A stretch of DNA of 63,151 bases, filler included, from Anaerolineae bacterium (GCA_041082215.1; 8 parts of 8 records of this genome joined end to end with filler, not necessarily neighbours in it), one strand, 5' to 3'; shown: positions 1,516 through 17,167, counted from the whole stretch's first letter. Notes: generated by a model not told the origin, from the sequence alone. Numbers and translations are program-made.

Positions 1516-2543
1516 CTGATTGTCCGCCGCGTGAGCCGGGCCAGCGCCTCCCGCATCAGCCGCACGGTGTTTTCGAAGTCGGCCAGGCTCAGGAGGCTGA
1601 CCGGGCTGTGGATGTAGCGGCAGGGGACGGCGACGGTGACGCAGGGGACCCCCTCACGCGCCAGGTGAATGGCCCCAGAGTCGGTGCCGCCGACGCCGGG
1701 CTGCTTAAACTGGTAGGGAATGCCCACCCCCTCCGCTGTCTCGACCAGCAACCGCACCAGCCCCCGATGGGCGATAAAGGTGCGGTCCATCACGGTGATC
1801 GCCGGCCCTTTCCCCATCTCGGTGGTCGGGCTGACATCCTTCTCCTTCGGCAGGTCGTCAGCGATGGTACCCTCCAGGGCGAAGGCGCAGTCGGGGCGGG
1901 CGGCGTAGGCGGCCACCCGCGCCCCCCGCAGCCCCACCTCCTCCTGCACAGTGAAGACTCCGTGCAGGTCGTGGGGGAACGGCTCCCCCCGCACCAGCTC
2001 CGCCAGCACCGCACACCCGGCCCGGTCGTCGAAGGCCTTGCCCATCACTGTCGGCCCCAGCTCCCGGAAACGGGTGGCGAAGACGGCCACTGTCCCCACC
2101 GGGGCCAGGTTTTTCGCCTCCTCCTTCCCCTTTGCCCCAACGTCCACCCGCAACTGCTCGATGGGGGCGACCTTCTCCGCCTCCCCCTCCTCCAGCAGGT
2201 GGACCGGCTTGAGGCCAATGACACCGGGGATGCGGTCCGGCCCCACCCAGACCTGCGCACCCGGCAGGACCCGGGGGTCTATCCCACCAACGGGCCGCAC
2301 TTTCAGCGTGCCCGAATCGTCGTGGCCGACGACCATCAGGCCGATCTCGTCCATATGGGCAGTGACCAGCACCCGCAGCCGGTCCTCCCCTGTTCCCCGC
2401 TTTTCGGTGTGCAGGTTTCCCAGCGCATCCACCCATATCCGGTCCACGTGGCCCTCCAGCGCCTGCCGCAGGAGCTGCCGGACCGGTGTTTCATATCCCG
2501 AGGGACCAAAGGCCTCCGAAAGTTCTTTGAGAATCATCCTCAA
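1512..2543 (-). CDS. M42 family aminopeptidase
   Basis: Metal-binding motifs AHMDEIG, KAFDDRAG, QEEVGLRG, GGTD, RYIHSP. Confidence 0.93.
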   Translation of the reverse strand: MRMILKELSEAFGPSGYETPVRQLLRQALEGHVDRIWVDALGNLHTEKRGTGEDRLRVLVTAHMDEIGLMVVGHDDSGTLKVRPVGGIDPRVLPGAQVWVGPDRIPGVIGLKPVHLLEEGEAEKVAPIEQLRVDVGAKGKEEAKNLAPVGTVAVFATRFRELGPTVMGKAFDDRAGCAVLAELVRGEPFPHDLHGVFTVQEEVGLRGARVAAYAARPDCAFALEGTIADDLPKEKDVSPTTEMGKGPAITVMDRTFIAHRGLVRLLVETAEGVGIPYQFKQPGVGGTDSGAIHLAREGVPCVTVAVPCRYIHSPVSLLSLADFENTVRLMREALARLTRRTIS

Positions 2544-2563
2544 CTCCGTAGCAACGTTTGCTG

Positions 2564-3619
2564 CTACCCTTCATCCTCCCACCGCGGCCGGAAGTCCGCC
2601 TCCAGCCCCGCTGCGAAGGATGCCAGCAGCCGCGCCGCCCGCTCCACATCCTTCAGCGCCACCGTCTCTACCGGCTGGTGCATATAGCGGAGCGGGATAG
2701 AGACCAGCCCCGTGGGCACTCCCTCGCGGGCCACCTGGATCGCCCAGGCGTCGGTGCCGCTGCGGCCGGGGGTCGGCTCGATGTGGTAGGGGATCTCCTG
2801 CGCCTCAGCGGTCGCCTTCAGCCGCTCGACCACCTGGGGGTGGAAGTTGGGCCCCACGCCGACCGTCGGTCCCTCCCCCAGCGGGAACGACTCGTCGGCG
2901 GATACACCCGGCTGCTGCCCGAAGGTCACGTCCACTGCCACCGCCATATCGGGGGCGACCCCGTAGGCGCTGGTGGCAGCCCCGTACAGCCCCACCTCCT
3001 CCTGCACCGTCGCTACTGCCACCACATCCCAGGCATGCTCCATCCGGCCCAGTTGCTCCAGCGCCAGCGTCACCGCTGCTACCGAGGCGCGGTTGTCCAG
3101 CGCCTTCCCCGCCGCCAGGCCGTTCTTCAGCTCCACCAGTTCCCGGCTGAAGGAGACGGGATCGCCCACACGGACCCACTCCTGTATTTCTTCCTCCGGC
3201 AGCCCCAGGTCAATGAACAGCTCCTCCCAGGGGACCGGCTTGTTCCGCTGCTCTTGAGGCACCACGTGGGGCGGGCGCATCCCCACGATGCCGGGGAGGT
3301 CTCGCCGGCCATGTACCACCACCTCTATGCCCGGCATCACCCGCCGGTCCGTTCCGCCGACGCGGGCGATGCGCAGGAAGCCCTTTTCGAACCCCGTCAC
3401 CCGCAGGCCGACCTCGTCCATATGGGCGGCCAGCATCAGCCGGGGGCGGGGTTCGGGAGCCGAGCCGCGCTTCAGCCCGATGAGGCTGCCCAATCCGTCC
3501 TCGCGCAGGTCGTCCACCAGCGGGGTCCAGAGCCGCCGCACCGCCTCGCGCACCGGCCCCTCGTGGCCAGGCAGCCCGGGGGTTTCCGAAAGTTCTTTCA
3601 ACAACGGGAACGTTTCCAT
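2564..3619 (-). CDS. M42 family aminopeptidase
   Basis: Motifs AHMDEVG, KALDNRAS, QEEVGLYG, SGTDA, RYMHQP. Confidence 0.93.
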   Translation of the reverse strand: METFPLLKELSETPGLPGHEGPVREAVRRLWTPLVDDLREDGLGSLIGLKRGSAPEPRPRLMLAAHMDEVGLRVTGFEKGFLRIARVGGTDRRVMPGIEVVVHGRRDLPGIVGMRPPHVVPQEQRNKPVPWEELFIDLGLPEEEIQEWVRVGDPVSFSRELVELKNGLAAGKALDNRASVAAVTLALEQLGRMEHAWDVVAVATVQEEVGLYGAATSAYGVAPDMAVAVDVTFGQQPGVSADESFPLGEGPTVGVGPNFHPQVVERLKATAEAQEIPYHIEPTPGRSGTDAWAIQVAREGVPTGLVSIPLRYMHQPVETVALKDVERAARLLASFAAGLEADFRPRWEDEG

Positions 3620-3636
3620 AGCCGCTCCTTTGCAGG

Positions 3637-4134
3637 TTATTCAGGCGTGGAGGTCGGCGTGGGAGTGGGGGTGTCGGTCGGCGTGGGGGTGGGGGTGGGG
3701 GTGGGGGTGTCGGTCGGCGTGGCGGTGGACGTGGGGGTGAGGGTAGGGGTTGGAGTGGGCGTGAAAGTGGGGGTGGCCGTATAGGTCGGCGTGGGCGTCG
3801 GCGTGGCGGTGCTGGTGGCCGTCGGCGTTTCGGTCGGGGTAGGCGTCACCGTGGGGGTTGGGGTCCTGGTGGGTGTGGGGGTCGGTGTGTTGGTGGGGGG
3901 CCAGGATTGGGTCGGCGTCGGCGGGAGGGTGGCTGTAGGCGGGCCGGGAGTGGGCGAGAGGGTGGGGGTGTTGGTGACGACCGTCGGGATGGGGGTGGGC
4001 TGTGCTGGAGTGGAAAGGACATAAAGTAGAAAGAAGCCCACACAATAGCAGGGCAGCGTCAGGAGGATAATGGCCAGCAGGGCCAGATGGATGGGACGAT
4101 TTGTCCCTTCCTTCAACGGGGCTTGCGTGGACAT
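3637..4134 (-). CDS. Membrane-anchored Pro/Thr-rich protein
   Basis: N-terminal hydrophobic helix ([10 protein letters not shown]) then a long (PT)n tail; promoter TTGACA-17-TATCAT at 4171-4143 just upstream (near-leaderless). Confidence 0.7.
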
Positions 4135-4187
4135 ACAGGGCTATGATAACATCGTTGTACGTCCTTGTCAATTTCCGTCCTGGCTGA

Positions 4188-4270
4188 GGTGTATTTCAGT
4201 TTGGGGGCGAGATGTCCCTGGCCCGGGCCGGACCTGGGGAAACACGAATGGCGCGAATGGAAACGAATAC
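4188..4270 (+). repeat. Partial copy (left arm) of the ~190-bp MITE-like element
   Basis: GGTGTATTTCAGTTTGGGGGCGAGATGTCCCTGG...CACGAATGGCGCGAATGGAAACGAATAC matches the copies at 10826-11015 (-) and 14469-14654 (+). Confidence 0.85.
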
Positions 4271-4360
4271 TGCCGCCCGCCTGTAGCGGGCATCCCCTCC
4301 CCTCTCCCGCACGGTGGGAAAGGGGAGGGGGTAGGGGGAGGGGTGAGGGTGGTCTCCCTG

Positions 4361-4762
4361 CTATTGTGTCCAGAGTTCCAGCAGGCCTGAGGCTGTCTGC
4401 TCCCGCCGACAGGTCGGGCAGAGGCCGATCCAGAGGGCCTCCCCGGCCCCCAGAACTTCCTCGATCCGGGCCGGCAGAGCCGCCAGGAGTCGCTCCGGAG
4501 CAAAGGGCTGCCCGCACCGGCTGCACAGACGAAGGGGGAACCGGAGCTGCGCTCCTTCCCGTTCCCGCTCCACCTCCCCAAAGGCGATGGCCTCTTGAGG
4601 GCACACATCCTGGCAACGGACACACTCCTCGTCGCAGGTGCCGGGGAACCGGATCGAGCGCAGGCCATCGGCCTCCTCCAGCCGGATCAGAGCGGCGGGG
4701 CAGACCGACGAGCAGGCGCGGCAGCCGAAGCACAGCGCCTCATCCACCAGCAGGCTTCTCAT
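4361..4762 (-). CDS. 4Fe-4S dicluster protein (formate dehydrogenase-associated)
   Basis: ATG at 4762 overlaps the upstream stop; CFGCRACSSVCP, CDEECVRCQDVCP, plus CSRC and CPTC. Confidence 0.85.
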   Translation of the reverse strand: MRSLLVDEALCFGCRACSSVCPAALIRLEEADGLRSIRFPGTCDEECVRCQDVCPQEAIAFGEVEREREGAQLRFPLRLCSRCGQPFAPERLLAALPARIEEVLGAGEALWIGLCPTCRREQTASGLLELWTQ

Positions 4763-5232
4763 GCCCCCCTCCTTTCCCACCCCTCTGCCCAGACGCGGCC
4801 GGCCACTTCTCTTCGACGGGAGGCGAAGTCGGCGACACAGGCCCGCACCAGCGCCTGACTGGGGCAGGTGAGCACGCAGGCCGGCTCCAGCCCCTCCTCC
4901 TGACGGCCCACACAGAGATCGCACTTGTGGACGCGCCGCACCTCCGCGTCCCACTCCACCGCACCGAAGGGACAGGCCCACAGGCACAGTTCACACCCGG
5001 TGCACTTTTCGATCTCCAGGTCCACCCGTCCGTCATGTCGCTCCAGAGCTCCGGCAGGGCAGACCGCGACGCAGGGGGCCAACTCGCAGTGGCGGCAGGC
5101 GACCGCCGCCCCACGCCCCAGATAGGCCACAACCCATATGCTCCCCCGCCCGCCATGCTCCCGGACGCAGGCCACCTCGCAGGCGTGGCAGAGAATGCAC
5201 CGTTCCGGCCGATAGAGAACCTCCCTGCCCAT
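4759..5232 (-). CDS. Four-cluster 4Fe-4S electron-transfer protein (HycB/HydN/FdhB-like)
   Basis: CILCHACEVAC, CRHCELAPCVAVCP, CTGCELCLWACP, KCDLC...PACVLTCP. Confidence 0.9.
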   Translation of the reverse strand: MGREVLYRPERCILCHACEVACVREHGGRGSIWVVAYLGRGAAVACRHCELAPCVAVCPAGALERHDGRVDLEIEKCTGCELCLWACPFGAVEWDAEVRRVHKCDLCVGRQEEGLEPACVLTCPSQALVRACVADFASRRREVAGRVWAEGWERRGA

Positions 5233-5235
5233 GGC

Positions 5236-7272
5236 CTACCCTCCTCTCCGCACGTCGCAGGCGGATACCTTGAAGGCCGGAATCCGCGACTCCGGGTCGA
5301 GGTCCTTCCGGGTGAGGATGTTGACGCGGGGGAAGTGGAAAGGAAGGAAGACGAGGCCGGGCTGGACCTCGGGGCTTACCCATACCTCGGCCTCCACGTC
5401 CCCCCGGGCGGTGCGGACGACGGCCGTCTCCCCCGCCGTCAGGCCGAGCTGCCGGGCGTCCTCCGGGTGCAGGGCGACCCAGCGGCGCGGGGCGTACCGG
5501 GCCAGGGAGGGGATGCGGCGGCTGAGGGAGCCGGAGTTATAGTGGGTCCCCACACGGCCGGTAGTCATCCACAGTGGGAAGCCGTTGCCGGGCTGCTCCT
5601 CCGGGCTGCGGTAGGTGACCGGCGTGAAGCGGCCCCTGCCGTTGGGGGTGGCGAAGCGGTCGGTGTGGAGGATGGGCGTCCCCGGGTGGGTGGGGTCGGG
5701 GCAGGGCCAGAAGAGGCCGTCGGGGGAGCGCTGAAGCCGGGCGGCGGAGATGCCCCCGTAGGCCGGAGCTGCCCGTCCGGCCTCGTCGAGGACCTGTTCG
5801 GGGGTAGGGACGGATTCCCACAGTCCCAGCCTTCGGCCCAGCTCTCCCACCACCCACAGGTCAGGCCGCGCCTCCCCCGGCGGCTCTACCGCCTTCGGCG
5901 ACCACTGGACGCGCCGTTCCGTTCCGGTGTAGCTTCCCGCCTTCTCGGCCCACGCCGCCGCTGGCAGTACCAGGTCGGCCATCTCTGCCGTCTCCGTCAG
6001 GAAGAGGTCGAGCACCACCAGGAACTCCACCCGCTCCAGCGCCTCGGCAGTATCACCGGCGGCAGGGTCGGAGACCAGGGGGTTTTCCCCCATCACCACA
6101 AGGGCACGGACCTCGCCCTGGCGGGCCGCTTCCATGATTTCCACCACGCTCAGGCCGGGGCTGGCGGGCAGGTCTTCCCGGCCCCAGAGGGCTGCCAGCC
6201 GCCTGCGGCCAGCTTCGTCCACCACTGGCACGTAGCCGGGGAGGAACTCGGCCAGCGCCCCCATGTCGCAGGCCCCCTGGACGTTGTTCTGCCCTCGCAG
6301 GGGGAGGACGCCGGTCCCAGGCCGCCCCACCTGCCCGCAGAGGAGGGCCAGGTTGGCGCAGGCAAGGACGTTGTCGGTGCCGACGGCGTGCTGGGTGATG
6401 CCCATACAGTAAACGATGGATGCGGCCGGAGCGCGGGCGTAGGCGCGGGCAGCGGCGGTGATCTGACCGGGTTCCAGGCCGGTGATGCCTGCCGCCTCCT
6501 CAACCGTATACCCCGCCAGCGCAGCCCGGAAGCCGTCGAACCCTGTGGTGCGTTCGGCGATGAAGGGGAAGTCGGCAAGCCCCTCCTGGAGGATGACGGC
6601 GGCCATCCCGTTGAGCAACGCCACATCCGTTCCGGGCCGCAGCGGCAGGTACAGGTCGGCCATCGCCGCCGTCGGCGTGCGGCGAGGGTCTGCCACAACA
6701 ACGAACGCCCCCCGGTCCCGCGCCTCCCAGACCCAGCGGGAGACGACAGGGTGGTTTTCGGCGAAGTTGGAGCCGATGACCAGGATCGAGCGGGCATGGG
6801 CCAGGTCGGGTATGGGGTTGGTCATCGCGCCGGAGCCGAAAGCACGGCTCAGCCCCACCACCGAGGGGGCGTGACAGAGGCGGGCGCAGTGGTCCACGTT
6901 GTTCGTCCCCAGGAGACGGGCCATTTTCTGGAACAGGTAGTTTTCCTCATTGGTGGCTTTGGCGGAGGCCAGGAAGGCCAGCGCGTCCGGACCGTGCTCC
7001 TGGCGGATGCGGGAAAGGTTCCGGACGACCCGGTCCAGCGCCTCATCCCAGTCCGCTTCCCGGAACCTTTCGTTCTCCCGGACCAGCGGGCGGCGCAGCC
7101 GGTCGGGGTGGTGGATCATCTCGTGGGCGACGTTGCCCTTGGAGCAGAGGGCGCCCTGGGCGACCGGGTGGTCGGTGAGGTACTCCACGCCGACGGCCCG
7201 ACCGTCCTCTACCCTTAGCCCCAGGCGGCACCCGGCGCCGCAGTAGGGACAGAGGACGGAGATAAGGTTCAT
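5236..7272 (-). CDS. fdhF: Mo/W-bisPGD formate dehydrogenase catalytic subunit (Cys type)
   Basis: CPYCGAGC...C 4Fe-4S motif, NNVDHCARLCHAPS active site (Cys, not Sec), PLRGQNNVQGACDMG. Confidence 0.92.
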   Translation of the reverse strand: MNLISVLCPYCGAGCRLGLRVEDGRAVGVEYLTDHPVAQGALCSKGNVAHEMIHHPDRLRRPLVRENERFREADWDEALDRVVRNLSRIRQEHGPDALAFLASAKATNEENYLFQKMARLLGTNNVDHCARLCHAPSVVGLSRAFGSGAMTNPIPDLAHARSILVIGSNFAENHPVVSRWVWEARDRGAFVVVADPRRTPTAAMADLYLPLRPGTDVALLNGMAAVILQEGLADFPFIAERTTGFDGFRAALAGYTVEEAAGITGLEPGQITAAARAYARAPAASIVYCMGITQHAVGTDNVLACANLALLCGQVGRPGTGVLPLRGQNNVQGACDMGALAEFLPGYVPVVDEAGRRRLAALWGREDLPASPGLSVVEIMEAARQGEVRALVVMGENPLVSDPAAGDTAEALERVEFLVVLDLFLTETAEMADLVLPAAAWAEKAGSYTGTERRVQWSPKAVEPPGEARPDLWVVGELGRRLGLWESVPTPEQVLDEAGRAAPAYGGISAARLQRSPDGLFWPCPDPTHPGTPILHTDRFATPNGRGRFTPVTYRSPEEQPGNGFPLWMTTGRVGTHYNSGSLSRRIPSLARYAPRRWVALHPEDARQLGLTAGETAVVRTARGDVEAEVWVSPEVQPGLVFLPFHFPRVNILTRKDLDPESRIPAFKVSACDVRRGG

Positions 7273-7297
7273 AGGGACCTCCGTGAAACGCGAAATG

Positions 7298-7735
7298 TTA
7301 GCGGGCCTCTCTCAACCAGTGGATGGCGGGAAAGACGTCCCGGACAGCGTTGTATAAATGCCCGTCCGCTGTCCAGAATTCGCCCCCTACAACCTCGGTC
7401 AGAGCCAGGTAGCACATATCGCAGGTGGCAGGGCGGTTCAGACGGGCCGCCAGGTCAAACACCCGGAGGGGAAGTTCCGGCGGGTCCAGGAAAGCGATAT
7501 CCAGGGAAAGAGCCGCCTCCAGCGCCCGGCGCGCATCCTCCGCCTGCATCAGGCCGCGGACCACCTTGCGCCACAGGGCCGAAGCCACCTCGTAGCGCAG
7601 CAAATGGGGAGCGATCACCTCCACGTCGCGGCTCATCCAGGCAGCCCAGAGGCTCAGCGCCCGCTCGCTCTGGCTTTCCGGAACCACCAGAGCGACCACA
7701 ACGCTGGCGTCAACGCAGACCGGTAAGTTCCGCAT
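7298..7735 (-). CDS. vapC: PIN-domain toxin (VapC-like)
   Basis: VCVDASVVV...YEVASAL...CDMCYLAL...WTADGHLY acidic tetrad; likely ATG at 7735. Confidence 0.85.
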   Translation of the reverse strand: MRNLPVCVDASVVVALVVPESQSERALSLWAAWMSRDVEVIAPHLLRYEVASALWRKVVRGLMQAEDARRALEAALSLDIAFLDPPELPLRVFDLAARLNRPATCDMCYLALTEVVGGEFWTADGHLYNAVRDVFPAIHWLREAR

Positions 7736-7976
7736 CCCGTTCCTCCCGCATCCGACGGATTTCATCGGACGAATCGGGAAGGGGGCCGTATTTCGCCAGG
7801 AACTCCTGCTGGAGCGACCGAAGCCGCTCTACACTTGCCATCCGCTGGCGGAGCCGGATTTCCCGTTCTGTGGCCCGGGAAATCACACGGGACCGTTCCC
7901 CTGGAGGGATAAGCCGCTTCACTTCCTCCCAGAGAGCACGGGGGAAAACCAGAGAGACCCGAACCGTATCGTTCAT
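7710..7976 (-). CDS. Ribbon-helix-helix antitoxin (VapB-like)
   Basis: VRVSLVFPRALWEEVKRLIPPGERSRVI; C-terminal DSSDEIRRMREERD; overlaps the PIN gene. Confidence 0.8.
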   Translation of the reverse strand: MNDTVRVSLVFPRALWEEVKRLIPPGERSRVISRATEREIRLRQRMASVERLRSLQQEFLAKYGPLPDSSDEIRRMREERDAELTGLR

Positions 7977-7988
7977 ACATACTCCTTA

Positions 7989-8039
7989 TACATACAAATT
8001 TTATGTATTCATTTTACATCACAATAGACCTCCTGTCAA
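7989..8039 (-). promoter_or_regulatory. Sigma70 promoter and operator of vapBC
   Basis: TTGACA (8039-8034)-17 nt-TAAAAT (8016-8011); inverted repeat ATACATA...TATGTAT at 7989-8008. Confidence 0.75.
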
Positions 8040-8110
8040 TTCCCACCCCAGCGCTGAGGGCAGGATAGGTGAAGAGATCGGATTGGCTCTGAGGCTGCGG
8101 GAGGTTCAGC

Positions 8111-8614
8111 CTATGGGGCTATTCGATACCCCCGGGCGACCTCCTCCGCCGCCTCCCGGCGGGCCAGGCGGGCGAATTCCTCCTCCTCCACAAAGACCAG
8201 CGCACGGGTGGGGCAGGCTTCGACGCAGGCGGGCACCTCCCGGTCGGGGCAGCGGTCACACTTGAGGGCGATCCGCCGCTCCCACTCCCGGCCGACCACG
8301 CCGTAAGGACAGACCATCGTGCACATCCAGCAGCCGATGCAGCGGTCGGGGTTGTGGGTCACGATGCGGGTGATCGGATCCTGGACCATCGCGCCGGTGC
8401 GGCACGCGGCCACGCAGGGGGCGTCCTCGCAGTGGCGGCAGAGGAAGGGCATCTTCCGCTCCAGGACGTACTCCACGTAGAGCCGACGACGGGGGCGCGG
8501 GGCCTCGGTGACCGCCCCGAAGAGGGTCCGGGTGCGGGAGTGCTCCACGGCACAGGCCAGTTCGCAGGAATGGCAACCCACACAGCGGTCCAGGCGGACG
8601 AATATCTCTTTCAT
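8111..8614 (-). CDS. cooF: CooF-like 4Fe-4S electron-transfer protein
   Basis: CVGCHSCELACAVEHS, CRHCEDAPCVAAC, CIGCWMCTMVCP, KCDRC...PACVEACP; directly downstream of cooS. Confidence 0.88.
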   Translation of the reverse strand: MKEIFVRLDRCVGCHSCELACAVEHSRTRTLFGAVTEAPRPRRRLYVEYVLERKMPFLCRHCEDAPCVAACRTGAMVQDPITRIVTHNPDRCIGCWMCTMVCPYGVVGREWERRIALKCDRCPDREVPACVEACPTRALVFVEEEEFARLARREAAEEVARGYRIAP

Positions 8615-8627
8615 AGCCCACCTCCCG

Positions 8628-10499
8628 CTATATCCCCAGCGCCGCCCGCTTTGCGGCGACGTGGTCCAGGATCAGGCGGGCGGCTTTGAACGGATCAGGC
8701 TCCACGGCGAACTTGCCGCCGACCACTCCCTCGGCTCCGGCGGTGAGCAGTTGCGCCACGTTGAGGCTGCCCAGGACCGGCGGGACGGTGCCCAGCACGG
8801 TGAAGATGCCGGAAGCAACCACATAGGCGCCGATGCTGACCGCCTTCTCGCTCATCCACTCCGGAGCTGCCCCAGCAACCGGCAGGTCGCTGATGTCCAC
8901 GCCCAGGGCGTTGGCGATGGCGGCGCAGGCGACCAGGATGCGGCTGATGTCCACACAACTGCCCATGTGGAGGACGGGCGGCACGCCCAGGGCCCGGCAG
9001 ACCCCCTTCAGCCCATCGCCTGCCAGTTCCGCCGCTTCGGGCAGGAGCAGGCCCGCCTTGGCGCAGGCGATGGCGTTGCAGCCTGTGGTCACCACCAGCA
9101 CGTTCTCCCGGATCAGCTCCTTGACCAGGTTGACATGGCCGTAGTCCTGCTGGACCTTGGGGTTGTTGCAGCCCACCACGGCCACGATCCCCTGGATCGC
9201 CCCGCTCTTGATAGCGTCCAGGAGCGGAGTCAGGCTGCCGCCCAGCGCGCCCACGATCGCCTCGACGCTGAAGCCGACCACGCACTCGCTTTTGACGTCC
9301 GGGATGTGGACCCGGGCGGGGTTGCGGTTGGGATAGTTTTCCACCGCCGTGCGGACGATGGCTTTGGCCGTCTCGTAGGCCGTCTCCTCGTGGAACTCCA
9401 TATGGAGCGCGCCGGGGAACTTGGCTTTAGGCGAGGTGGAGATGAATTTCGTGTGGTAGCAACTGGCCAGGTCGGCCAGGGCCGGGAAGATGCACTGCAC
9501 GTCCACGACCATCGCCTCCACGGCCCCGGTGATGACTGCCAGTTCCTGATGGAGGAAGTTGCCGGCGATGGGGATGCCGTGGCGCATGAGGACCTCGTTG
9601 CCGGTGCAGCAGATGCCGGCGACCTGGATGCCCCTGGCCCCCTTCGCTTTGGCCAGAGCGACCAGCTCGGGGTCCTGGGCCGCGGCGACGATCATCTCCG
9701 AGAGGATCGGCTCGTGGCCGTGGACGATGATGTTGACCTGGTCGGGCTTCAGCACCCCCAGGTTGGCCTCAGCGCGCTTCGGCTGCGGGACGCCGAACAG
9801 CACGTCCTGGAGTTCGGTGGCGATCATGGACCCGCCCCAGCCGTCGGCCAGGCTGGCGCGCAGGCCGTGGAGGATGAGGTTGACGTAGTCGTTGTCCACC
9901 CCCATATGGGTGCGGTGCATGATCTCCACAATCTCACGGTCTATGCCGCGCGGGTCAATGCCCAGCGACTGCCACAGGGAGACCCGTTTGGCCGGCGCAC
10001 GGCGGGTGAACTGGATGGGCCCTTCCTGTTTGCCGAACTCGGCGTAGGCAGCGCGGGCCAGGTCCAGGGCGATCTCTTCCTTGCTGCGTCCCTCCGTTTC
10101 GATGCCATACTCTGTGGCAAGGGCCTTGAGTTTGACCTCATCTTTAATCTCATAGCCGCCGCCTTTGCCCTCGGCGGTCAGGAGCAGTGTGTGGGCCACA
10201 TCCCGCCCGTGGTCGGAGTGGGCGGCTGCTCCTCCTGCGATCATGCGGCTCAGGTTGCGGGCCACGATGGTGTCGGCCGTAGCGCCGCAGACTCCCCGTG
10301 ATGGCCCCTCACCGAAGGGATCAATACGACAGGGCCCCATGTTGCAGTTGCGGCAACAGAGGCCCAGTTCGCCGAAGCCACATTGGGGCTGCTGTTTTTC
10401 AAACCGATCCCAGGCCGTCTCCAGGTGCTCCTTCTCGGCCACTCCGAGCATCTCCTGGGCAGCCGGATCTATGCTCCTGCGCAGAATCTCTTCACGCAT
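8628..10499 (-). CDS. cooS: Anaerobic Ni,Fe carbon monoxide dehydrogenase catalytic subunit
   Basis: ATG at 10499 with AAGGAGG RBS; D/B-cluster QCGFGELGLCCRNCNMGPC; AHSDH; C-cluster HGHEP, ICCTG, DVQC, GCNN, TGC, GSCVD; EKA lysine. Confidence 0.97.
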   Translation of the reverse strand: MREEILRRSIDPAAQEMLGVAEKEHLETAWDRFEKQQPQCGFGELGLCCRNCNMGPCRIDPFGEGPSRGVCGATADTIVARNLSRMIAGGAAAHSDHGRDVAHTLLLTAEGKGGGYEIKDEVKLKALATEYGIETEGRSKEEIALDLARAAYAEFGKQEGPIQFTRRAPAKRVSLWQSLGIDPRGIDREIVEIMHRTHMGVDNDYVNLILHGLRASLADGWGGSMIATELQDVLFGVPQPKRAEANLGVLKPDQVNIIVHGHEPILSEMIVAAAQDPELVALAKAKGARGIQVAGICCTGNEVLMRHGIPIAGNFLHQELAVITGAVEAMVVDVQCIFPALADLASCYHTKFISTSPKAKFPGALHMEFHEETAYETAKAIVRTAVENYPNRNPARVHIPDVKSECVVGFSVEAIVGALGGSLTPLLDAIKSGAIQGIVAVVGCNNPKVQQDYGHVNLVKELIRENVLVVTTGCNAIACAKAGLLLPEAAELAGDGLKGVCRALGVPPVLHMGSCVDISRILVACAAIANALGVDISDLPVAGAAPEWMSEKAVSIGAYVVASGIFTVLGTVPPVLGSLNVAQLLTAGAEGVVGGKFAVEPDPFKAARLILDHVAAKRAALGI

Positions 10500-10779
10500 G
10501 GTATGCCTCCTTAAAGCATCTGGTTTGCCGGTCAGACTGCACAGAGAGCCTGGGAATGCTTCCGTTTGGCCTGTGGTCCCGGAAATCACCTCCTTTCCAT
10601 ACAGGATGGCCCCGCGGGTGCTGAGGGATTCGGCGCGAAACTACGTGTCCTCCGTGCCTCCGTAGTGGGAAAAGATTGAACTAAGCAAGTCTTGTTATGT
10701 AAGGCTGCATTAGAGGGAGAGGGGGTAGGGGAAGGATAGCCGTCGGGTTAGAATGATAGGTGAATCCTTCTTTATAAAT

Positions 10780-10808
10780 ATTATAGCACAGCTCGGGGCC
10801 AGCGTCAA
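10780..10808 (-). promoter_or_regulatory. Sigma70 promoter upstream of cooS
   Basis: TTGACG (10808-10803)-17 nt-TATAAT (10785-10780); implies a leader of about 275 nt. Confidence 0.7.
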
Positions 10809-10825
10809 ACCGGATTGCACGCAGG

Positions 10826-11015
10826 GGCGTATTTCAATTTCGGGGCGAGTGGTCCTCTCACTCGCCGGTAGATCGCGAATCCCACGAATGGCCCGAACAC
10901 AGCGAACAGGAGGGATACCTGCCCCATTCGCGGTATTCGTTTCCATTCGCGCCATTCGTGTTTCCCCAGGTCCGACCCGCGCCAGGGACATCTCGCCCCC
11001 AAACTGAAATACACC
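10826..11015 (-). repeat. MITE-like element, full copy
   Basis: Terminal inverted repeats GGCGTATTTCAATTTCGGGGCGAG / CTCGCCCCCAAACTGAAATACACC; internal 9-mer (CGAATGG) repeats form a long hairpin. Confidence 0.85.
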
Positions 11016-11087
11016 TCGTGGCTGACTGCGAACGTACCGCCAGCAGGCCGGGCTTCAGCTTGCCCTGCCGGATTTTCAGATAGGCTT

Positions 11088-12842
11088 TCAGGCGAAGATG
11101 CTCAATTGGGGGGCTATCTGGACCTGAACCAGGTGCCGGTAGAGGCCGTCGCAGGCCATCAGCTCCTCATGGGTCCCCATCTCGACGATCCGGCTGCCCT
11201 CCAGGACGACGATCAGATCGGCGTTGCGCACCGTGGAGAGGCGATGGGCGATGATGAGGGTAGTCCTGCCGACCATCAGTCGTTCAAGCGCCTGCTGGAT
11301 GAGCATCTCCGTCTCGGCATCCACCGAAGAGGTGGCCTCATCCAGGATCAGGATGGGGGCATCCTTGAGCACGGCGCGGGCGATGGCGACCCGCTGCCGC
11401 TGGCCCCCGGAGAGCTTGACGCCCCGCTCGCCGATGACGGTGTTGTACCCTTCAGGCAGGCGGACGATGAATTCGTGCGCGTTGGCGACCTGGGCTGCCC
11501 AGATCATCTCCTCTTCGGTAGCGTCGGGGCGGCCGAAGAGGATGTTTTCCCGCACCGTGCCGTGAAAGAGGAACACATCCTGCGTTACGATGCTGATCTG
11601 TCGTCGCAAGCTCTTGAGCGTCAGGTCGCGGATGTCTATGCCGTCCAGCGTGACAGCCCCTTCACAGACGTCGTAGAAGCGGGGGATGAGGCTGGCCAGC
11701 GTCGTCTTGCCCACCCCCGTGGGGCCGACCAGCGCGACAGCGGTGCCAGGCGGGATGTCCAGGTCAATGTGCTCCAGCACCGGGTCCCCCTCCTTGTACC
11801 AGAAGCTGACACCCTGGAACCGGATCGCCCCTTTCGCCCTGCCGGGCAACTCGATGGCGCCGGGCCGATCAACGATCTCGGGCTGCTCGTTCAGCAGTTC
11901 GCTCACCCGCTCCGCCCCCGCCAGGGCCTGCTGGACGCTCTCCCACGCCTGGCTCAGGGCCCGCACAGGCTGGTACAGCATCTCGAGGTAGAGAAAGAAG
12001 GCCACCAGGTCCTCGATGGGCAGAGTCCGGTTCAGGACAAGCCGCCCGCCAAAATAGATGAGGACGATGGTGCCCAGCGAGGAGGCGAACTCGACGAAGG
12101 GATGAAACACGGCCATCAGACGGAGGGCGCGGAGCAGCGAATCCCGGTAACGGACGATGTGGCTCCAGATCCGGGCGGCCTCTATCTCTTCCCGGGTGAA
12201 GGCCTTGATCTCCCGCATGCCGGAGAGGTTGTCGTTCAGGGTGGCGTTCAGTTCCCCCAGCTCCGCCTGCCGCTTGCGGAACGCCGGGCGAACGTATCTG
12301 GATAAGCCCTGCATCGCCACCACGATGAGGGGGATGGGAATGAGGCTGAGCAGGGCCAGTTGCCAGCTCATCTGAAACAGGATCAGGGCGGCCCCTATCA
12401 ATGTCAGCAGGTTGACCGTGACGTCCGGTATGGCATGGGCGATCAGTTGCTCCAGAAGGTCGGAGTCGTTGACTGTGCGGGACATCAGTTGGCCCACCTG
12501 CTTGTCCGCGTAAAAGCGGAGGGAGAGCCGCTGGAGATGGTTGTATATTTCGGCACGGACATTGGCGACCACGTTCCAGCCAGCCACGTGGGCCATATAG
12601 CTCCGCAGGAACTGGAGGACGCCGCGGACTACGTAGACCAGCAGCGCCACCAGGGCCAGCCGGGCGACGAAGTCCACCGCCTTCGGCCCGGCGGCCGGAT
12701 CGGTTACGGTGGCGACCATGCTGCGCACGATCCAGGGGGCCAGCAACTGGACGCCTACCAGCAGCAGCATGCTGATGACGGTGATCACCAGCGGTCGGAC
12801 GTACTGGCGGACATACCGATACACAAACCGAAGGGACTTCAC
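11088..12842 (-). CDS. ABC exporter, fused TMD-NBD (MdlB/MsbA-like)
   Basis: Hydrophobic N-terminal half; Walker A GPTGVGKT, LSGGQ signature, ILDEATSS. Confidence 0.95.
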   Translation of the reverse strand: MKSLRFVYRYVRQYVRPLVITVISMLLLVGVQLLAPWIVRSMVATVTDPAAGPKAVDFVARLALVALLVYVVRGVLQFLRSYMAHVAGWNVVANVRAEIYNHLQRLSLRFYADKQVGQLMSRTVNDSDLLEQLIAHAIPDVTVNLLTLIGAALILFQMSWQLALLSLIPIPLIVVAMQGLSRYVRPAFRKRQAELGELNATLNDNLSGMREIKAFTREEIEAARIWSHIVRYRDSLLRALRLMAVFHPFVEFASSLGTIVLIYFGGRLVLNRTLPIEDLVAFFLYLEMLYQPVRALSQAWESVQQALAGAERVSELLNEQPEIVDRPGAIELPGRAKGAIRFQGVSFWYKEGDPVLEHIDLDIPPGTAVALVGPTGVGKTTLASLIPRFYDVCEGAVTLDGIDIRDLTLKSLRRQISIVTQDVFLFHGTVRENILFGRPDATEEEMIWAAQVANAHEFIVRLPEGYNTVIGERGVKLSGGQRQRVAIARAVLKDAPILILDEATSSVDAETEMLIQQALERLMVGRTTLIIAHRLSTVRNADLIVVLEGSRIVEMGTHEELMACDGLYRHLVQVQIAPQLSIFA

Positions 12843-12902
12843 TCTGGAATCCTCCTCCTGAAAGAGGTGCGCCGATCCCAGCCCCTGCTCCCAGGCTGAT
12901 GG

Positions 12903-13346
12903 TCAGCCTCCGGTGGCCCGCTGCAGGTTCTCCCGAATGCGGGAGAAGAAACCGTGCAGCAATTCCCGCTCCTCAGGGGTGAAGCCAGCGAACGCCTCCT
13001 CGTCGAGGGCCTGCCAGATCTGCAGCACCTTCTCGCGGACGGCCTGCCCGGCCTCTGTGAGGTAGACACGGGAGACACGCTGGTCGCGTTGATCGGGCCT
13101 GCGCTCGACAAAGCCGGAACGCTCCATCCGGCGGATCATCTTCGTGATCGTGGCCGGCTGGACACCCAGCCGTCTGGCCAGCTCCGTGTGGGTCAGTCCA
13201 TCCTTTTCCCACAGTGCCCGCAACACCGCCGGCTGCCCGCGGTAAAGGCCCAACCCTTTCAGCCTGCTGTGTACGTGAGCATGCTTCAAACGGCAGACCT
13301 CCGCAAACAGCCTGTCCAGGGGTTCCGGCTCCGGGGATCGGCTCAT
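12903..13346 (-). CDS. MarR family transcriptional regulator
   Basis: LTHTELARRLGVQPATITKMIRRMERSGFVER...DQRVSRVYLT. Confidence 0.92.
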   Translation of the reverse strand: MSRSPEPEPLDRLFAEVCRLKHAHVHSRLKGLGLYRGQPAVLRALWEKDGLTHTELARRLGVQPATITKMIRRMERSGFVERRPDQRDQRVSRVYLTEAGQAVREKVLQIWQALDEEAFAGFTPEERELLHGFFSRIRENLQRATGG

Positions 13347-13365
13347 TTTGACCGTTCCTCAATTT

Positions 13366-13396
13366 ATTTAGCCAGCAAAATATTGGACGGCTAAAT
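13366..13396. promoter_or_regulatory. Probable MarR operator
   Basis: AT-rich inverted repeat ATTTAGCC-N15-GGCTAAAT about 20 nt upstream of the marR start. Confidence 0.6.
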
Positions 13397-14322
13397 TATA
13401 CGCTCCTTTCGGTCTCTGTCAAGAGCCCCAGCCTTTCGGCCAGCTCCTGAAAGACCGCCTCGTCGGGGCGGAAGGGGATGCCTGTGAAGACCGACCAGGT
13501 TTCCCGGTGGGTCACCGCATCGCCTGGGGCCAGCCGGGTGCGGGGTCCCAGCGTCTCCAGTTCCAGGAAGCGGGGGTCGCAGTAGCACTCGCTGGAGGCC
13601 CCCCGGTCGAAGTAGGGCATGTCGGGCCGGTAGGGGGCTTGTTTGACAAACAGCACATCCCCCAGGGCGTAGGCGAGCCATCCGACGGGGTTGGGAAAGC
13701 CAAGCTTGAGGGCTCCGCTCTCCATCGCGGCCCGGACAAAGATGTACCGGTCTCCCCACTCGATGTAAGGGGAATGAATTGAGGTATAGGGCCACAGCAC
13801 GATATGGCGGTTGGGCAGCACGCCGTACCTGTCGGCTGGGCCGGTGGGCTGGGGGAGGATGGCGACCCCTCCAGGCCTGACCTGGGTGATGGCCCACGCC
13901 GCCAGCTCGACCGGTTCCTCTCCCAGATTGCGCAGCGTGTGATCCACCGCAATAAGCGGCCACTGCTCGTCCAGGACAAGTGTGAGCGACTTCTGGATGC
14001 CGGTCTCCGGTTCAATGGACTGGGTGATGGTTAGCCCTCCCTCCGTCTCCGTGATGAGGACGGGAGCGTCGTCGGGGAGGTAGGTCCGTGGGGGCTCTTC
14101 GGGGGCGTGCCACAGCCGGTGACCCCCGTAGAAAGTAAAGCGTTTCCCATCGGCAAGGGGGATCCCCTCATCGGGGGGGAGCAGGGCGAAGAGATTGTCA
14201 CGGCCCTGGGGGGCCAGCCCGAGGACGCGCGGCCCCACCGTTCGGGCGACCCACACGCACAGGCAGTCGTTTTCCAGCTTTATGCACTTGTAACCTGCCA
14301 GAAGAGCCTCCGTCTTTTTCAT
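13396..14322 (-). CDS. Hypothetical protein (DUF4380/galactose-mutarotase-like fold)
   Basis: VGPRVL, YGGHRLWHAPE and LELETLGP motifs; ATG at 14322 after GGAGG. Confidence 0.65.
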   Translation of the reverse strand: MKKTEALLAGYKCIKLENDCLCVWVARTVGPRVLGLAPQGRDNLFALLPPDEGIPLADGKRFTFYGGHRLWHAPEEPPRTYLPDDAPVLITETEGGLTITQSIEPETGIQKSLTLVLDEQWPLIAVDHTLRNLGEEPVELAAWAITQVRPGGVAILPQPTGPADRYGVLPNRHIVLWPYTSIHSPYIEWGDRYIFVRAAMESGALKLGFPNPVGWLAYALGDVLFVKQAPYRPDMPYFDRGASSECYCDPRFLELETLGPRTRLAPGDAVTHRETWSVFTGIPFRPDEAVFQELAERLGLLTETERSV

Positions 14323-14468
14323 CGTCTCTGCTCCCTCCTGATGAACTGGACTCACCCAGAGCGTCCGACCCTCCGCTCGGCGCGCTGCCGGTAGGCTATA
14401 CACACTTCGGCCTTTTTGTCAAATCTTCCCCTCTTGTAGCTGCTCACCGCAGAGCTTCGAAAGCCTTC

Positions 14469-14654
14469 TATTTCAGTTTGGGGGCGGGATGTCCCTGGCC
14501 CGGGCCGGACCTGGGGAAACACGAATGGCGCGAATGGAAACGAATGCTGCGAATGGAGCAGGTGTCCCTCCTGTTCGCGGTATTCGGGCCATTCGTGGGA
14601 TTTGCGATCCACCGGCGAGCGAGAGGACCACTCGCCCCGAAATTGAAATACGCC
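14469..14654 (+). repeat. MITE-like element copy
   Basis: TATTTCAGTTTGGGGGCG...CGCCCCGAAATTGAAATACGCC, highly similar to the reverse complement of 10826-11015. Confidence 0.85.
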
Positions 14655-14759
14655 CGCCCGGCATCCTTTCTTGCTCAAAAGGTCGCCGGGTAGTATACTA
14701 AATAAATCCATTTGAACCGGCCCGGTTGGACGGTTCTAAATAGATTCAGGAGGATAGCA

Positions 14760-15797
14760 ATGGATCGAAGGCTGTGGATTGTAGCGGTGATCTTGCTGCT
14801 GACGGCGTCGCTGGCCTGTTCGTTAGTTGGCAGGGGGGCAACTGAGCAGCCGGGTGCAGGAGGTGAGGCGGCCACGCCCGCCGGGACTGAGGTGCAGGAG
14901 CCAGCGGAGGAGACGGGCGGGGAAACGGCCCCGCCGCCCGAAGTCTCCTCAAACGCACTCGCCGGTCTCAATAGCTACCGGGCCCGCATAGCTTACAGGT
15001 GGGCAACCGACTCCGGGACTGTAGAGAGCATGGTCGTCGAGATGGACGAAACTCGCGAACCCCCGGCGAGACGGTACCGGGTCTCCTCTGAGGATGAAGC
15101 CGAGGCTGTGGAGTACGTCCAGATCGGGAATACCGCCTGGTACTGCTTCGGAGGGACATGTGGACAGACCGAGCAGGATCCCGAGGAGGCGATCGAACAG
15201 TTTGGGGCCGATCTGAAGTTCGACCCTGCCGGGTTCTTGAGCGGGGACTACCGGTACGCTGGCCGGGAAACGGTGAACGGGATCGCGTGCCGGCACTATG
15301 AACTGCTCCTCTCGCCTGCAGAGGTGGCGGCGATCACCGCCAGCGAAGACGTCACCGACGTAGAGGCTGAGGCCTGGATCGCCGATGAGAGCGGTCTTCC
15401 CTCGTTCGTCGTGCGGTTCATCCTGACCTGGAGGGGAACGACTAACGGTCAACCGGGCGAGGGACAATACCAGTACGACATCTACGAGGTCAATTCTGCT
15501 TTCACTATCGAGCCCCCCGAAGGTGCTCCAACCGGGCTTCCTGAAGACATCCCGCTGTACCCGAATGCCTCTGGTGTTTCTTTAATGCAAGGGATGGCCT
15601 CCTTCACGACTTCCGACGCCGTCGAGGCTGTGGGCCAGTTCTACAAGGACCAGCTACCCGGCATGGGCTGGACGTTGCAGGAGGAGACCGCGATCTCCGG
15701 GACGATCATGCAGACCTGGGTAAAGGGCGATCGCAGCCTGAGCGTGATGGTCAGTTCCAGCGACAGCACCACACAGGTCGTGCTGATGGAGCAGTAG
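14760..15797 (+). CDS. Lipoprotein, function unknown
   Basis: Signal peptide with lipobox SLAC, acidic linker, beta-rich domain (GRETVNGIACRHY), C-terminal LPEDIPLYP domain. Confidence 0.75.
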   Translation: MDRRLWIVAVILLLTASLACSLVGRGATEQPGAGGEAATPAGTEVQEPAEETGGETAPPPEVSSNALAGLNSYRARIAYRWATDSGTVESMVVEMDETREPPARRYRVSSEDEAEAVEYVQIGNTAWYCFGGTCGQTEQDPEEAIEQFGADLKFDPAGFLSGDYRYAGRETVNGIACRHYELLLSPAEVAAITASEDVTDVEAEAWIADESGLPSFVVRFILTWRGTTNGQPGEGQYQYDIYEVNSAFTIEPPEGAPTGLPEDIPLYPNASGVSLMQGMASFTTSDAVEAVGQFYKDQLPGMGWTLQEETAISGTIMQTWVKGDRSLSVMVSSSDSTTQVVLMEQ

Positions 15798-15947: not shown

Positions 15948-16019
15948 TGGGGCGTGGCCAAGTGGTAAGGCAACGGACTTTGGATCCGTGATTCGCAGGT
16001 TCGAATCCTGCCGCCCCAG
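15948..16019 (+). tRNA. tRNA-Gln (anticodon TTG)
   Basis: Acceptor TGGGGCG/CGCCCCA, anticodon arm ACGGA-CTTTGGA-TCCGT, GTTCGAATC T-loop; CCA not encoded; promoter TTGCGG-17-TAACAT at 15906-15934. Confidence 0.95.
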
Positions 16020-17067: not shown

Positions 17068-17167
17068 NNNNNNNNNNNNNNNNNNNNNNNNNNNNNNNNN
17101 NNNNNNNNNNNTTAATTAATTAANNNNNNNNNNNNNNNNNNNNNNNNNNNNNNNNNNNNNNNNNNNN
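17068..17167. other. Artificial contig spacer
   Basis: N44-TTAATTAATTAA-N44 with stops in all six frames; also at 38269, 48830, 50609, 53072, 54391 and 61647. Confidence 0.99.

Follow-up and report, generated by a model that had tools for sequence, protein, structure and literature searches.

Does the genome of an Anaerolineae bacterium (GCA_041082215.1) encode a natural enzyme complex that couples the oxidation of carbon monoxide (CO) to the formation of formate? This question is raised by a 63,151-nucleotide stretch of DNA (hereafter the window), which consists of several contigs joined by runs of N, among them C112 (1-17067), a run of N (17068-17167) and C114 (17168-38268). Only C112, the first 17067 bases, bears on the carbon monoxide dehydrogenase-formate dehydrogenase (CODH-FDH) module considered here. 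It belongs to a metagenome-assembled genome (MAG) of 3.53 Mb in 174 contigs, 96.1% complete and 3.4% contaminated, and public sequencing runs with a matching stretch carry the label hot springs metagenome. A first-pass annotation had proposed that seven genes on the minus strand of this contig (4361-10499) form a CO:formate oxidoreductase. We put at roughly 55% the probability that the five redox genes among them encode a soluble complex like hydrogen-dependent CO2 reductase (HDCR) and formate hydrogenlyase (FHL), in which a Ni-CODH replaces the hydrogenase as electron input. The annotated gene set, its positions and shared orientation, and the intact CooS ligands were borne out by open reading frame (ORF) calls, profile scores and motifs, as follows.

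8628-10499, minus strand: cooS, catalytic subunit of a monofunctional Ni-CODH, 623 aa (TIGR01702, PF03063, ligand motifs)
8111-8614, minus strand: cooF, four-[4Fe-4S] electron-transfer protein of the HycB/WorS type, 167 aa (PF13247, 16 Cys)
7710-7976, minus strand: vapB-like antitoxin candidate, 88 aa (overlaps the PIN gene)
7298-7735, minus strand: vapC-like PIN-domain toxin candidate, 145 aa (PF01850)
5236-7272, minus strand: fdhF, catalytic subunit of a Cys-type Mo/W-bis-PGD (pyranopterin guanine dinucleotide) FDH, 678 aa (TIGR01591)
4759-5232, minus strand: hycB-like, four-[4Fe-4S] protein with a C-terminal helix, 157 aa (PF13247, 16 Cys)
4361-4762, minus strand: hycF-like Fe-S protein, 133 aa (profile and fold likeness to HycF)

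The genes are tightly spaced, with 13 nt between cooS and cooF, 25 nt between vapC and fdhF, 3 nt between fdhF and hycB, and an ATGA overlap of hycB and the hycF-like gene. CooS scored 765.4 bits against TIGR01702 (cut-off 478) and 4.8e-194 against PF03063, its best solved relative being 6t7j_B (847 bits), and its ATG start at 10499 is preceded by GGAGG 7 nt upstream. All eight motifs looked for are present (C-x7-CC-x2-C-x4-C, GVCG, HGH, CCTG, VQC, GCNN, TGC and GSC), which we take to serve the D, B and C clusters as in the literature on C. hydrogenoformans CODH-II. FdhF reached 788.6 bits against TIGR01591 (cut-off 666.25) and matched PF00384, PF01568 and PF04879, while nitrate reductase models stayed far under their cut-offs. 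The fdhF gene has no in-frame stop; its product carries a Cys-His active site (CARLCH), the motif RGQNNVQG and an N-terminal CPYCGAGC, presumably the Sec/Cys-His pair at the metal site (Sec, selenocysteine), the conserved Arg motif and the Cys of the N-terminal 4Fe-4S cluster, respectively. It is of the cytoplasmic type, without flavin or 2Fe-2S domains, its closest solved relatives being 9t1s_L (660.7 bits) and the HDCR subunit FdhF (7qv7_S, 636.6 bits), and the FdhFs of all modules compared are of the Cys type.

The two four-cluster proteins are alike in kind. CooF matched PF13247 at 9.9e-19 and keeps 16 Cys invariant across 22 sequences; its best solved relatives are the nanowire subunit WorS (9mqx_E, 102 bits) and the HDCR proteins HycB4 and HycB3 (7qv7_B/A). 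The HycB-like protein matched PF13247 at 2.3e-18, with 16 Cys invariant across 31 sequences, and found FHL HycB (7z0s_B), 9mqx_E as second best, and 7qv7_A. As judged by these comparisons, both are close to the nanowire-forming proteins WorS, HycB3 and HycB4.

The third Fe-S protein proved the most informative. The first-pass annotation had spoken of two further polyferredoxins; both Fe-S proteins are there and the first is indeed of the HycB type, while the description of the last is to be refined to a HycF homologue. It consists of a two-cluster ferredoxin core, a CxxC...CxxC stretch and a C-terminal helix. All ten members of its family (10/10) match HycF (NF009053) and HyfH (NF006076), always under the curated cut-offs, with 43.7 bits against 204 for HycF and 36 against 270 for HyfH in the window's protein. 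The family profile recovered E. coli HycF from the PDB (7z0s_F, E 1.9e-15, positions 7-122) including C-x2-C-x-RPFA and CPxC, and in addition the C-terminal half of WorA (9mqx_A, E 4.9e-6). An AlphaFold model (pLDDT 83.5) also led to 7z0s_F in a Foldseek search (E 1.5e-9, TM 0.74). Judging from profile and fold, the 133-aa protein is a shortened relative of HycF rather than an equivalog. Since it is HycF-like on both counts, the trio fdhF-hycB-hycF reproduces the soluble arm of FHL, and the analogy to an HDCR with CODH becomes sharper. In two Methanothrix relatives (L008:5750-6226 and L070:13012-13464; L, G and C numbers are our handles for loci, genomes and contigs), 4/8 Cys of the ferredoxin core are lost, which leaves ligands for one cluster, and the C-terminal CxxC...CxxC is retained.

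We were curious to know how widely this gene order occurs, as the first-pass annotation had let its proposal hang on conserved synteny. The order is conserved across two domains of life, with occurrences in 9/16 Methanothrix species genomes, in metagenome contigs and in two genomes of the window's own family. The flanking sequences retrieved for the 80 best CooS loci of 185,579 species genomes contain an FdhF-like gene in 11 cases. Nine of these 11 were annotated: L017, L020, L062 and L073 are acetyl-CoA synthase (acs)/Wood-Ljungdahl (WL) clusters, L024 and L038 pair an NAD-type FdhA with cooC-cooS, and L005 and L008, both titled Methanothrix sp., show exactly cooS-cooF-fdhF-hycB-hycF. L034 and L061, which fall outside the nine, are distant CooS matches (36% and 32%). 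The ninth annotated locus, L049, from a record titled Thermovorax subterraneus DSM 21563 (1645-14947, single strand), holds an HDCR-like set with a CODH attached, comprising AOR, a HydA-like gene, a Sec-type fdhF split at the stop, hydA, a HycB-like gene, cooS, cooC, an ECF component and FTHFS. Across the 16 species genomes of the Methanothrix genus of L005 and L008, the full module is found in nine, a version without fdhF in two and neither in five. In L005 and L008, the intergenic gaps measure 3-91 bp.

When metagenomes were scanned with the HycF-like alignment, 55 loci emerged, 38 of them with the HycF-like gene itself; related samples contributed many near-duplicate contigs, so that the counts cannot be treated as independent. 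Of the 38 loci, 12 have the full module, and a further three start with cooF at a contig cut. cooS-cooF-hycB-hycF occurs at seven plus one cut of the 38, fdhF-hycB-hycF with 5 kb of other genes upstream at 2/38, and FNOR-hycB-fdhF-hycB-hycF (FNOR, FAD-NAD(P) oxidoreductase) at 1/38. The remainder are deletion remnants (3/38), a distant locus (1/38) and loci cut too short to tell (8/38). In the window's own family, an ortholog of the Cys-type FdhF (70-78% identity) was detected in 8/25 genomes; in two of these eight (G014 and G018), cooS-cooF stands upstream, beyond a cyclase gene of 1.1 kb, in two others (G025 and G017) the adjoining 3.4 kb do not contain it, and in four the context is hidden by contig ends.

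The components moreover co-diverge and have been exchanged as modules. From the window to Methanothrix, CooF (62% identity), FdhF (52%) and HycB (45%) fall into the same grouping, and CooS shares 73%. In L086 (G018), L116 and L119, the CooS belongs to a different clade, only 53% identical to the window's, and yet the CooF is still 85-92% identical; with L092 (G021), which shows the same swap, the range is 85-95%. Both CooS clades found in the module keep all cluster ligands, and some CooS is always encoded upstream. Since CooS was replaced while CooF stayed, CooF goes with the FDH part of the module, and the point of exchange is the cooS-cooF junction rather than that of cooF and fdhF. Elsewhere the partner position is taken by other enzymes: FNOR stands there in L003, the locus of the closest CooS relative (80% identity), and in the genomes of six relatives (G048, G060, G038 and G046 among them), and G011, G054 and G056 combine cooS/cooF with NuoF and NuoG-like genes. 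In the cooS-cooF-nuoF clusters L145, L146 and L149, the NuoG-like protein ends in a HycF-like domain. Conversely, L147 (121-5371) holds genes for an FNOR-like flavoprotein, hycB, fdhF, hycB and a hycF-like protein, with mobA on the opposite strand; going by its gene content, this is an FDH trio with a pyridine-nucleotide head in place of CODH. Taken at the level of genes, the pattern looks as if one kind of Fe-S backbone could be fitted with different, exchangeable catalytic heads, in the manner of plug-and-play redox modules.

Complex modelling, which the first-pass annotation had recommended, was done with CooF as partner against the HycB-like and HycF-like proteins, using custom alignments and no cofactors. 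Three runs gave ipSAE values of 0.85, 0.86 and 0.83, compared with 0.50 for the best of three controls; that mark is attained by 116/157 solved complexes and by 2/215 mismatched pairs. At least 90% of the contacts are common to the runs, with a partner pLDDT of at least 86. In the predicted interface, the Cys-rich stretch 90-109 of CooF faces HycB 47-53, the C-terminal helix of HycB (133-152) and residues 103-130 of the HycF-like protein. According to the available part of PMC12318220, WorS, HycB3/4 and AorA build Fe-S nanowires by their C-terminal helix, and WorA plugs in by a Zn finger and a helix. The modelled contact resembles both this mode of assembly of WorS, AorA and HycB3/4 and the WorA plug.

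On these grounds we propose the following mechanism. CooS would oxidise CO to CO2, and the electrons would exit via its B and D clusters, enter the four-cluster protein CooF and move on to the HycB-like protein with its own four clusters. To this chain of Fe-S proteins the HycF-like protein would attach by its C-terminal helix and its Zn-finger-like CxxC...CxxC. The electrons would then pass to the [4Fe-4S] cluster of FdhF and its Mo/W centre, where CO2 would be reduced to formate. The net reaction would be CO + H2O -> formate + H+, reversible at low CO; from textbook potentials it yields about -17 kJ/mol. As to the physiological role, the methyl branch of the host's WL pathway, whose gene cluster lacks an FDH, would draw on this formate, and no hydrogenase would be needed.

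The genes between cooF and fdhF and the signals around the cluster bear on whether the two halves act as one unit. The vapC-like protein scored 29.5 bits against PF01850 (cut-off 23.6), and the 88-aa vapB-like ORF, for which neither Pfam nor NCBIfam gave a match, overlaps the PIN gene by 26 nt, so that the PIN-domain gene is preceded by a small overlapping candidate antitoxin gene as in VapBC systems. A tblastn search detected no copy of the vapC-like gene in the relatives' loci, and decayed vapB remnants lie at the matching site in L086, L109, L111 and L114; those of L086 are frameshifted and share 83-85% DNA identity with the window's vapB. In G014 and G018, the cooF-fdhF gap is filled by a gene for a 277-aa cyclase-family lipoprotein of PF04199 (L085:7074-7907 and L086:7999-8796). 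The candidate signals are listed below.

10780-10808, minus strand: promoter-like site upstream of cooS, TTGACG-17-TATAAT with TG (consensus match only)
8011-8039, minus strand: promoter-like site upstream of vapB, inside the insert, TTGACA-17-TAAAAT (consensus match only)
4294-4350, no strand: GC-rich palindromic repeat of 57 bp right after the last gene (fold -33.3 kcal/mol)

The vapB-proximal site could also drive fdhF-hycB-hycF. The palindrome, present in 18 copies on 15 contigs of the genome, is a possible transcript end. A terminator scan gave three sites against 3.5 expected by chance, none of them between cooF and fdhF, and is uninformative. An Rfam scan of C112 (E up to 0.1) revealed no riboswitch in the ~270-nt cooS leader or before fdhF, its only hit being a tRNA at 15948-16019 on the plus strand (RF00005, 69.7 bits).

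Several observations weigh against direct coupling. The complex model beat its controls (0.85 vs 0.50), but its pass shows likeness rather than binding and may be memory of solved nanowires, because look-alike complexes have been solved (7QV7 and 9MQX). In G025 and G017, there is no cooS-cooF for at least 3.4 kb from the trio fdhF-hycB-hycF, and G017, which is 89% complete, yielded no CooS of the window's type; L109 and L111 likewise hold the trio without cooS-cooF. A paralogous trio is found at 15 further loci in 14/16 Methanothrix genomes, with no cooS/cooF within 1.5 kb. Conversely, cooS-cooF-hycB-hycF without fdhF is present in 2/16 Methanothrix genomes and in seven metagenome contigs plus one cut, and L107, L113 and L110 carry decayed copies of the module. 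Unrelated inserts between cooF and fdhF are tolerated (vapBC here, the PF04199 cyclase in G014/G018), and the vapBC insert has a promoter-like site of its own. Contigs of one metatranscriptome library, which contained 22% of the sampled words, match fdhF (5), cooF (1) and cooS (2) with 0-1 differences, which in itself speaks for the proposal, but DNA may be in the library; within this single library no junction is bridged, and vapBC, hycB and hycF are not covered to any depth.

Some of these loci deserve a remark of their own. The order cooS-cooF-hycF in L107 and L113 was considered as a third type of module and rejected, as the CooS match spans only ~307/624 residues; for the same reason both are regarded as deletion remnants, like L110. 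L107 and L113 retain the 3' half of cooS, cooF and hycF, L110 joins cooS and fdhF fragments, and a CooF-like fragment is left in L109 and L111. Upstream, L109 and L113 have the same neighbourhood, recognisable by a Mut7-C RNase gene, and the five contigs L107, L113, L110, L109 and L111 are probably close relatives. In the Methanothrix loci L172, L173, L174 and L186, the paralogous trio stands with a second fdhF in tandem, either after or before it, and several HycF-like genes of this set show an in-frame TAG in the search table.

The best-placed alternative is that two independent ferredoxin-linked enzymes lie side by side only for co-regulation: CooS-CooF would reduce free ferredoxin, FdhF-HycB-HycF would be self-contained, and no contact would be needed. 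The free-standing trios of G017, G025, L109 and L111 and of the 15 loci in 14/16 Methanothrix genomes fit this view, as do the cooS-cooF pairs with other partners, the inserts and internal promoter-like site between the halves, and the reported acceptance of ferredoxin as a donor by HDCR (known to us from a title cited in PMC11338639). Set against this are the order cooS-cooF-fdhF in more than 20 independent-looking loci with cooF-fdhF gaps of 31-91 bp, and the fact that exchanges of CooS have left CooF in place beside the FDH genes. The model, moreover, places CooF on the HycB-like and HycF-like proteins above the level of the controls, and a dedicated four-cluster CooF would be needless for a purely diffusible link. 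We therefore hold independence to be rather unlikely, while granting it a serious share of the probability.

Considerably less plausible is an Fe-S hub, in which a CooS-CooF-HycB-HycF core would deliver electrons through the HycF-like plug to a partner elsewhere (ferredoxin, Hdr or a membrane complex) and FdhF would be an optional, formate-oxidising input, with CO and formate as alternative donors. The HycF-like gene accompanies cooS-cooF more regularly than it accompanies fdhF (seven contigs and one cut, and 2/16 Methanothrix genomes, without fdhF), and a HycF-like domain ends the NuoG-like protein of L145, L146 and L149; in FHL itself, HycF passes electrons onward from HycB. No candidate acceptor, however, is encoded in or beside any module examined, genomes with the fdhF-less module have fdhF paralogues at other loci, which could act in trans, and the occurrence of the trio with FNOR points to FdhF as the true end of the chain. 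That two operons met by chance at an insertion hot spot, with no functional link, is very improbable. It could be argued from the vapBC or cyclase genes that separate the halves and from the 88-bp repeat, spread over the whole genome, on either side of the cluster; against it stands a gene order that is shared by two domains of life and dozens of contigs, mostly free of inserts.

The coupled, HDCR-like complex remains our preferred reading. The first-pass picture of an HDCR with a CODH in place of its hydrogenase holds at the level of parts; because the trio exists without cooS-cooF and cooS-cooF has other partners, the coupling itself, like the CO-to-formate activity, is what we infer from them. 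Its statement that the cluster lacks a hydrogenase, an acetyl-CoA synthase, a flavin reductase and a membrane subunit also stood up: a Pfam scan of 12 ORFs (~2.5-14.4 kb of the 17-kb C112) revealed none of these, nor any other flavoprotein or membrane redox subunit, HycE or HycG. Next to the cluster lie genes for an ABC exporter and MarR at one end and for a Pro/Thr-rich protein and an M42 peptidase at the other. The Pro/Thr-rich ORF (3637-4134, minus strand, 165 aa; promoter-like site at 4171-4143) starts with one hydrophobic N-terminal stretch followed by ~110 residues of near-pure Pro/Thr repeats, and Pfam gave no match to it.

Elsewhere in the MAG, contig C100 carries a complete acs/WL cluster without an FDH, consisting of FTHFS, CooS/AcsA, AcsB, AcsD, AcsC, RACo, CooC, AcsE and FolD. 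Genes for FdhD, MobA, FocA and CooC are located outside the module; no CooC is encoded in the cluster, and the CooC-like genes on C100 are 50% and 33% identical to the CooC of L049 (tblastn). The only other FdhF of the MAG (C83:44612-46696; L083:6601-8748) has an in-frame TGA at its active site (CARL*HAP) and is therefore a selenocysteine paralogue of the window's Cys enzyme. mobA adjoins this gene, and within 27 kb lie two HdrA/MvhD/HdrBC-like sets, a fusion of FocA with a response-regulator receiver and a group-3-like NiFe hydrogenase set. The 96.1%-complete MAG yielded no match to the [FeFe] hydrogenase domain PF02906; PF00346 matched only once in the genome, on C118, and the large subunits of NiFe hydrogenases are encoded on C10 and C83.

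The 88-bp repeat lies at 4186-4273 (plus), 10933-11017 (minus) and 14469-14550 (plus) of the window and occurs 93 times in the MAG, on 48 contigs. The whole cluster is enclosed by two copies in inverted orientation, which would suit a mobile cassette; with so many copies, however, some next to the cluster are expected by chance. Owing to this repeat, the flanks have 50-100 times the depth of the cluster in the hot-spring DNA runs, where many contigs diverge at 4187 and 10825. They show no RNA cover, which is not counted as evidence.

How does the module compare with known systems? It shares with the HDCR of acetogens (FdhF, a HycB3/HycB4 filament and HydA2; PDB 7QV7) an FdhF of the same type (7qv7_S, as above), two HycB-type four-cluster proteins with C-terminal helices, for which 7qv7_A/7qv7_B match CooF and the HycB-like protein, and a predicted soluble, flavin-free nature. 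It differs in having a Ni-CODH where HDCR has an [FeFe] hydrogenase, an extra HycF-like protein and an FdhF of the Cys type. As HydA2 (PF02906) is absent from the cluster and the MAG, the module is not an HDCR but is only built like one. With the soluble arm of E. coli FHL (PDB 7Z0S/7Z0T) it has in common the order and identity of fdhF, hycB and the hycF-like gene, the profile match being full-length and including the C-terminal Cys motifs; unlike FHL, the cluster lacks the HycE/HycG hydrogenase and the HycC/HycD membrane subunits, and its HycF-like protein is shorter than HycF by ~35 N-terminal residues. The CooS-CooF-FNOR and CODH/energy-converting hydrogenase clusters (CooS-CooF-CooX...CooH) use the same CooS-CooF input pair, whereas the partner here is the FDH trio and there is no flavoprotein, hydrogenase or membrane part. 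CooX is itself NuoI/HycF-like.

Among solved structures, CooF comes closest to the WorS (102 bits) of WorABCSL, the tungsten aldehyde oxidoreductase nanowire (PDB 9MQX), whose WorA matches the HycF-like profile in its C-terminal half (ferredoxin domain, Zn finger and helix). The available part of PMC12318220 predicts that CooS-CooF modules form such wires (CodhABCSF); unlike both WorABCSL and the predicted CodhABCSF, the module of the window has no bifurcating BfuABC core, and its catalytic partner is FdhF. The synthetic CO:formate oxidoreductase (CFOR) of Thermococcus onnurineus, as described in the accessible portion of Lim et al. (2022; PMC9166738), has the same proposed net chemistry and a direct CODH-FDH Fe-S path, but is an engineered fusion of Fe-S subunits, while the Fe-S proteins of the window are separate and natural.

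In that portion of their paper, Lim et al. (2022) noted that no natural enzyme was known for CODH-FDH coupling, and a 2026 review knows of no native CODH-FDH interaction. Supplementary tables of surveys aside, we found no description of a natural cooS-cooF-fdhF-hycB-hycF operon in the literature searched, of which PMC13056359, PMC13240472, PMC11338639, PMC6344411, PMC3349665 and PMC6687939 were represented by partial texts. The excerpts of the 2026 surveys PMC13056359 and PMC13240472 file CODH beside fdh/WL genes under 'one-carbon pool', and a term search of the available text of the CODH genomic-context survey PMC6344411 gave no mention of formate. As for Methanothrix, the role of the monomeric FdhA is called unclear in the accessible section of PMC6687939, and neither fdh nor cooS is mentioned by Zhu et al. 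(2012).

CODH-FDH coupling is a target of C1 biotechnology, and the sole direct coupling in the literature searched is the engineered Fe-S fusion. Nature probably already has the CO-to-formate enzyme that engineers built by hand. A conserved natural operon would give ready-made parts together with a design rule, namely a C-terminal-helix nanowire and a HycF-like plug. As the route is hydrogenase-free, it would offer a CO-insensitive path from CO to the methyl branch of the WL pathway. The presence of the module in 9/16 Methanothrix species genomes furthermore suggests a testable role for the 'monomeric FdhA' genes and bears on the fate of CO electrons in this genus (PMC4652020). We tentatively go one step further and speculate, as a reading we would not yet bet on, that the module is a natural 'CO hydratase' nanowire with a mixed CooF/HycB backbone, CODH and FDH mounted next to each other on it, and a HycF-like cap, which would perform CO + H2O -> formate without a carrier and would have moved between thermophilic Chloroflexota-like bacteria and Methanothrix. 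If this is true, the nanowire module would set the tiny CO and formate pools seen in Methanothrix during growth on acetate, and would be a sink for CO electrons in these hydrogenase-poor archaea.

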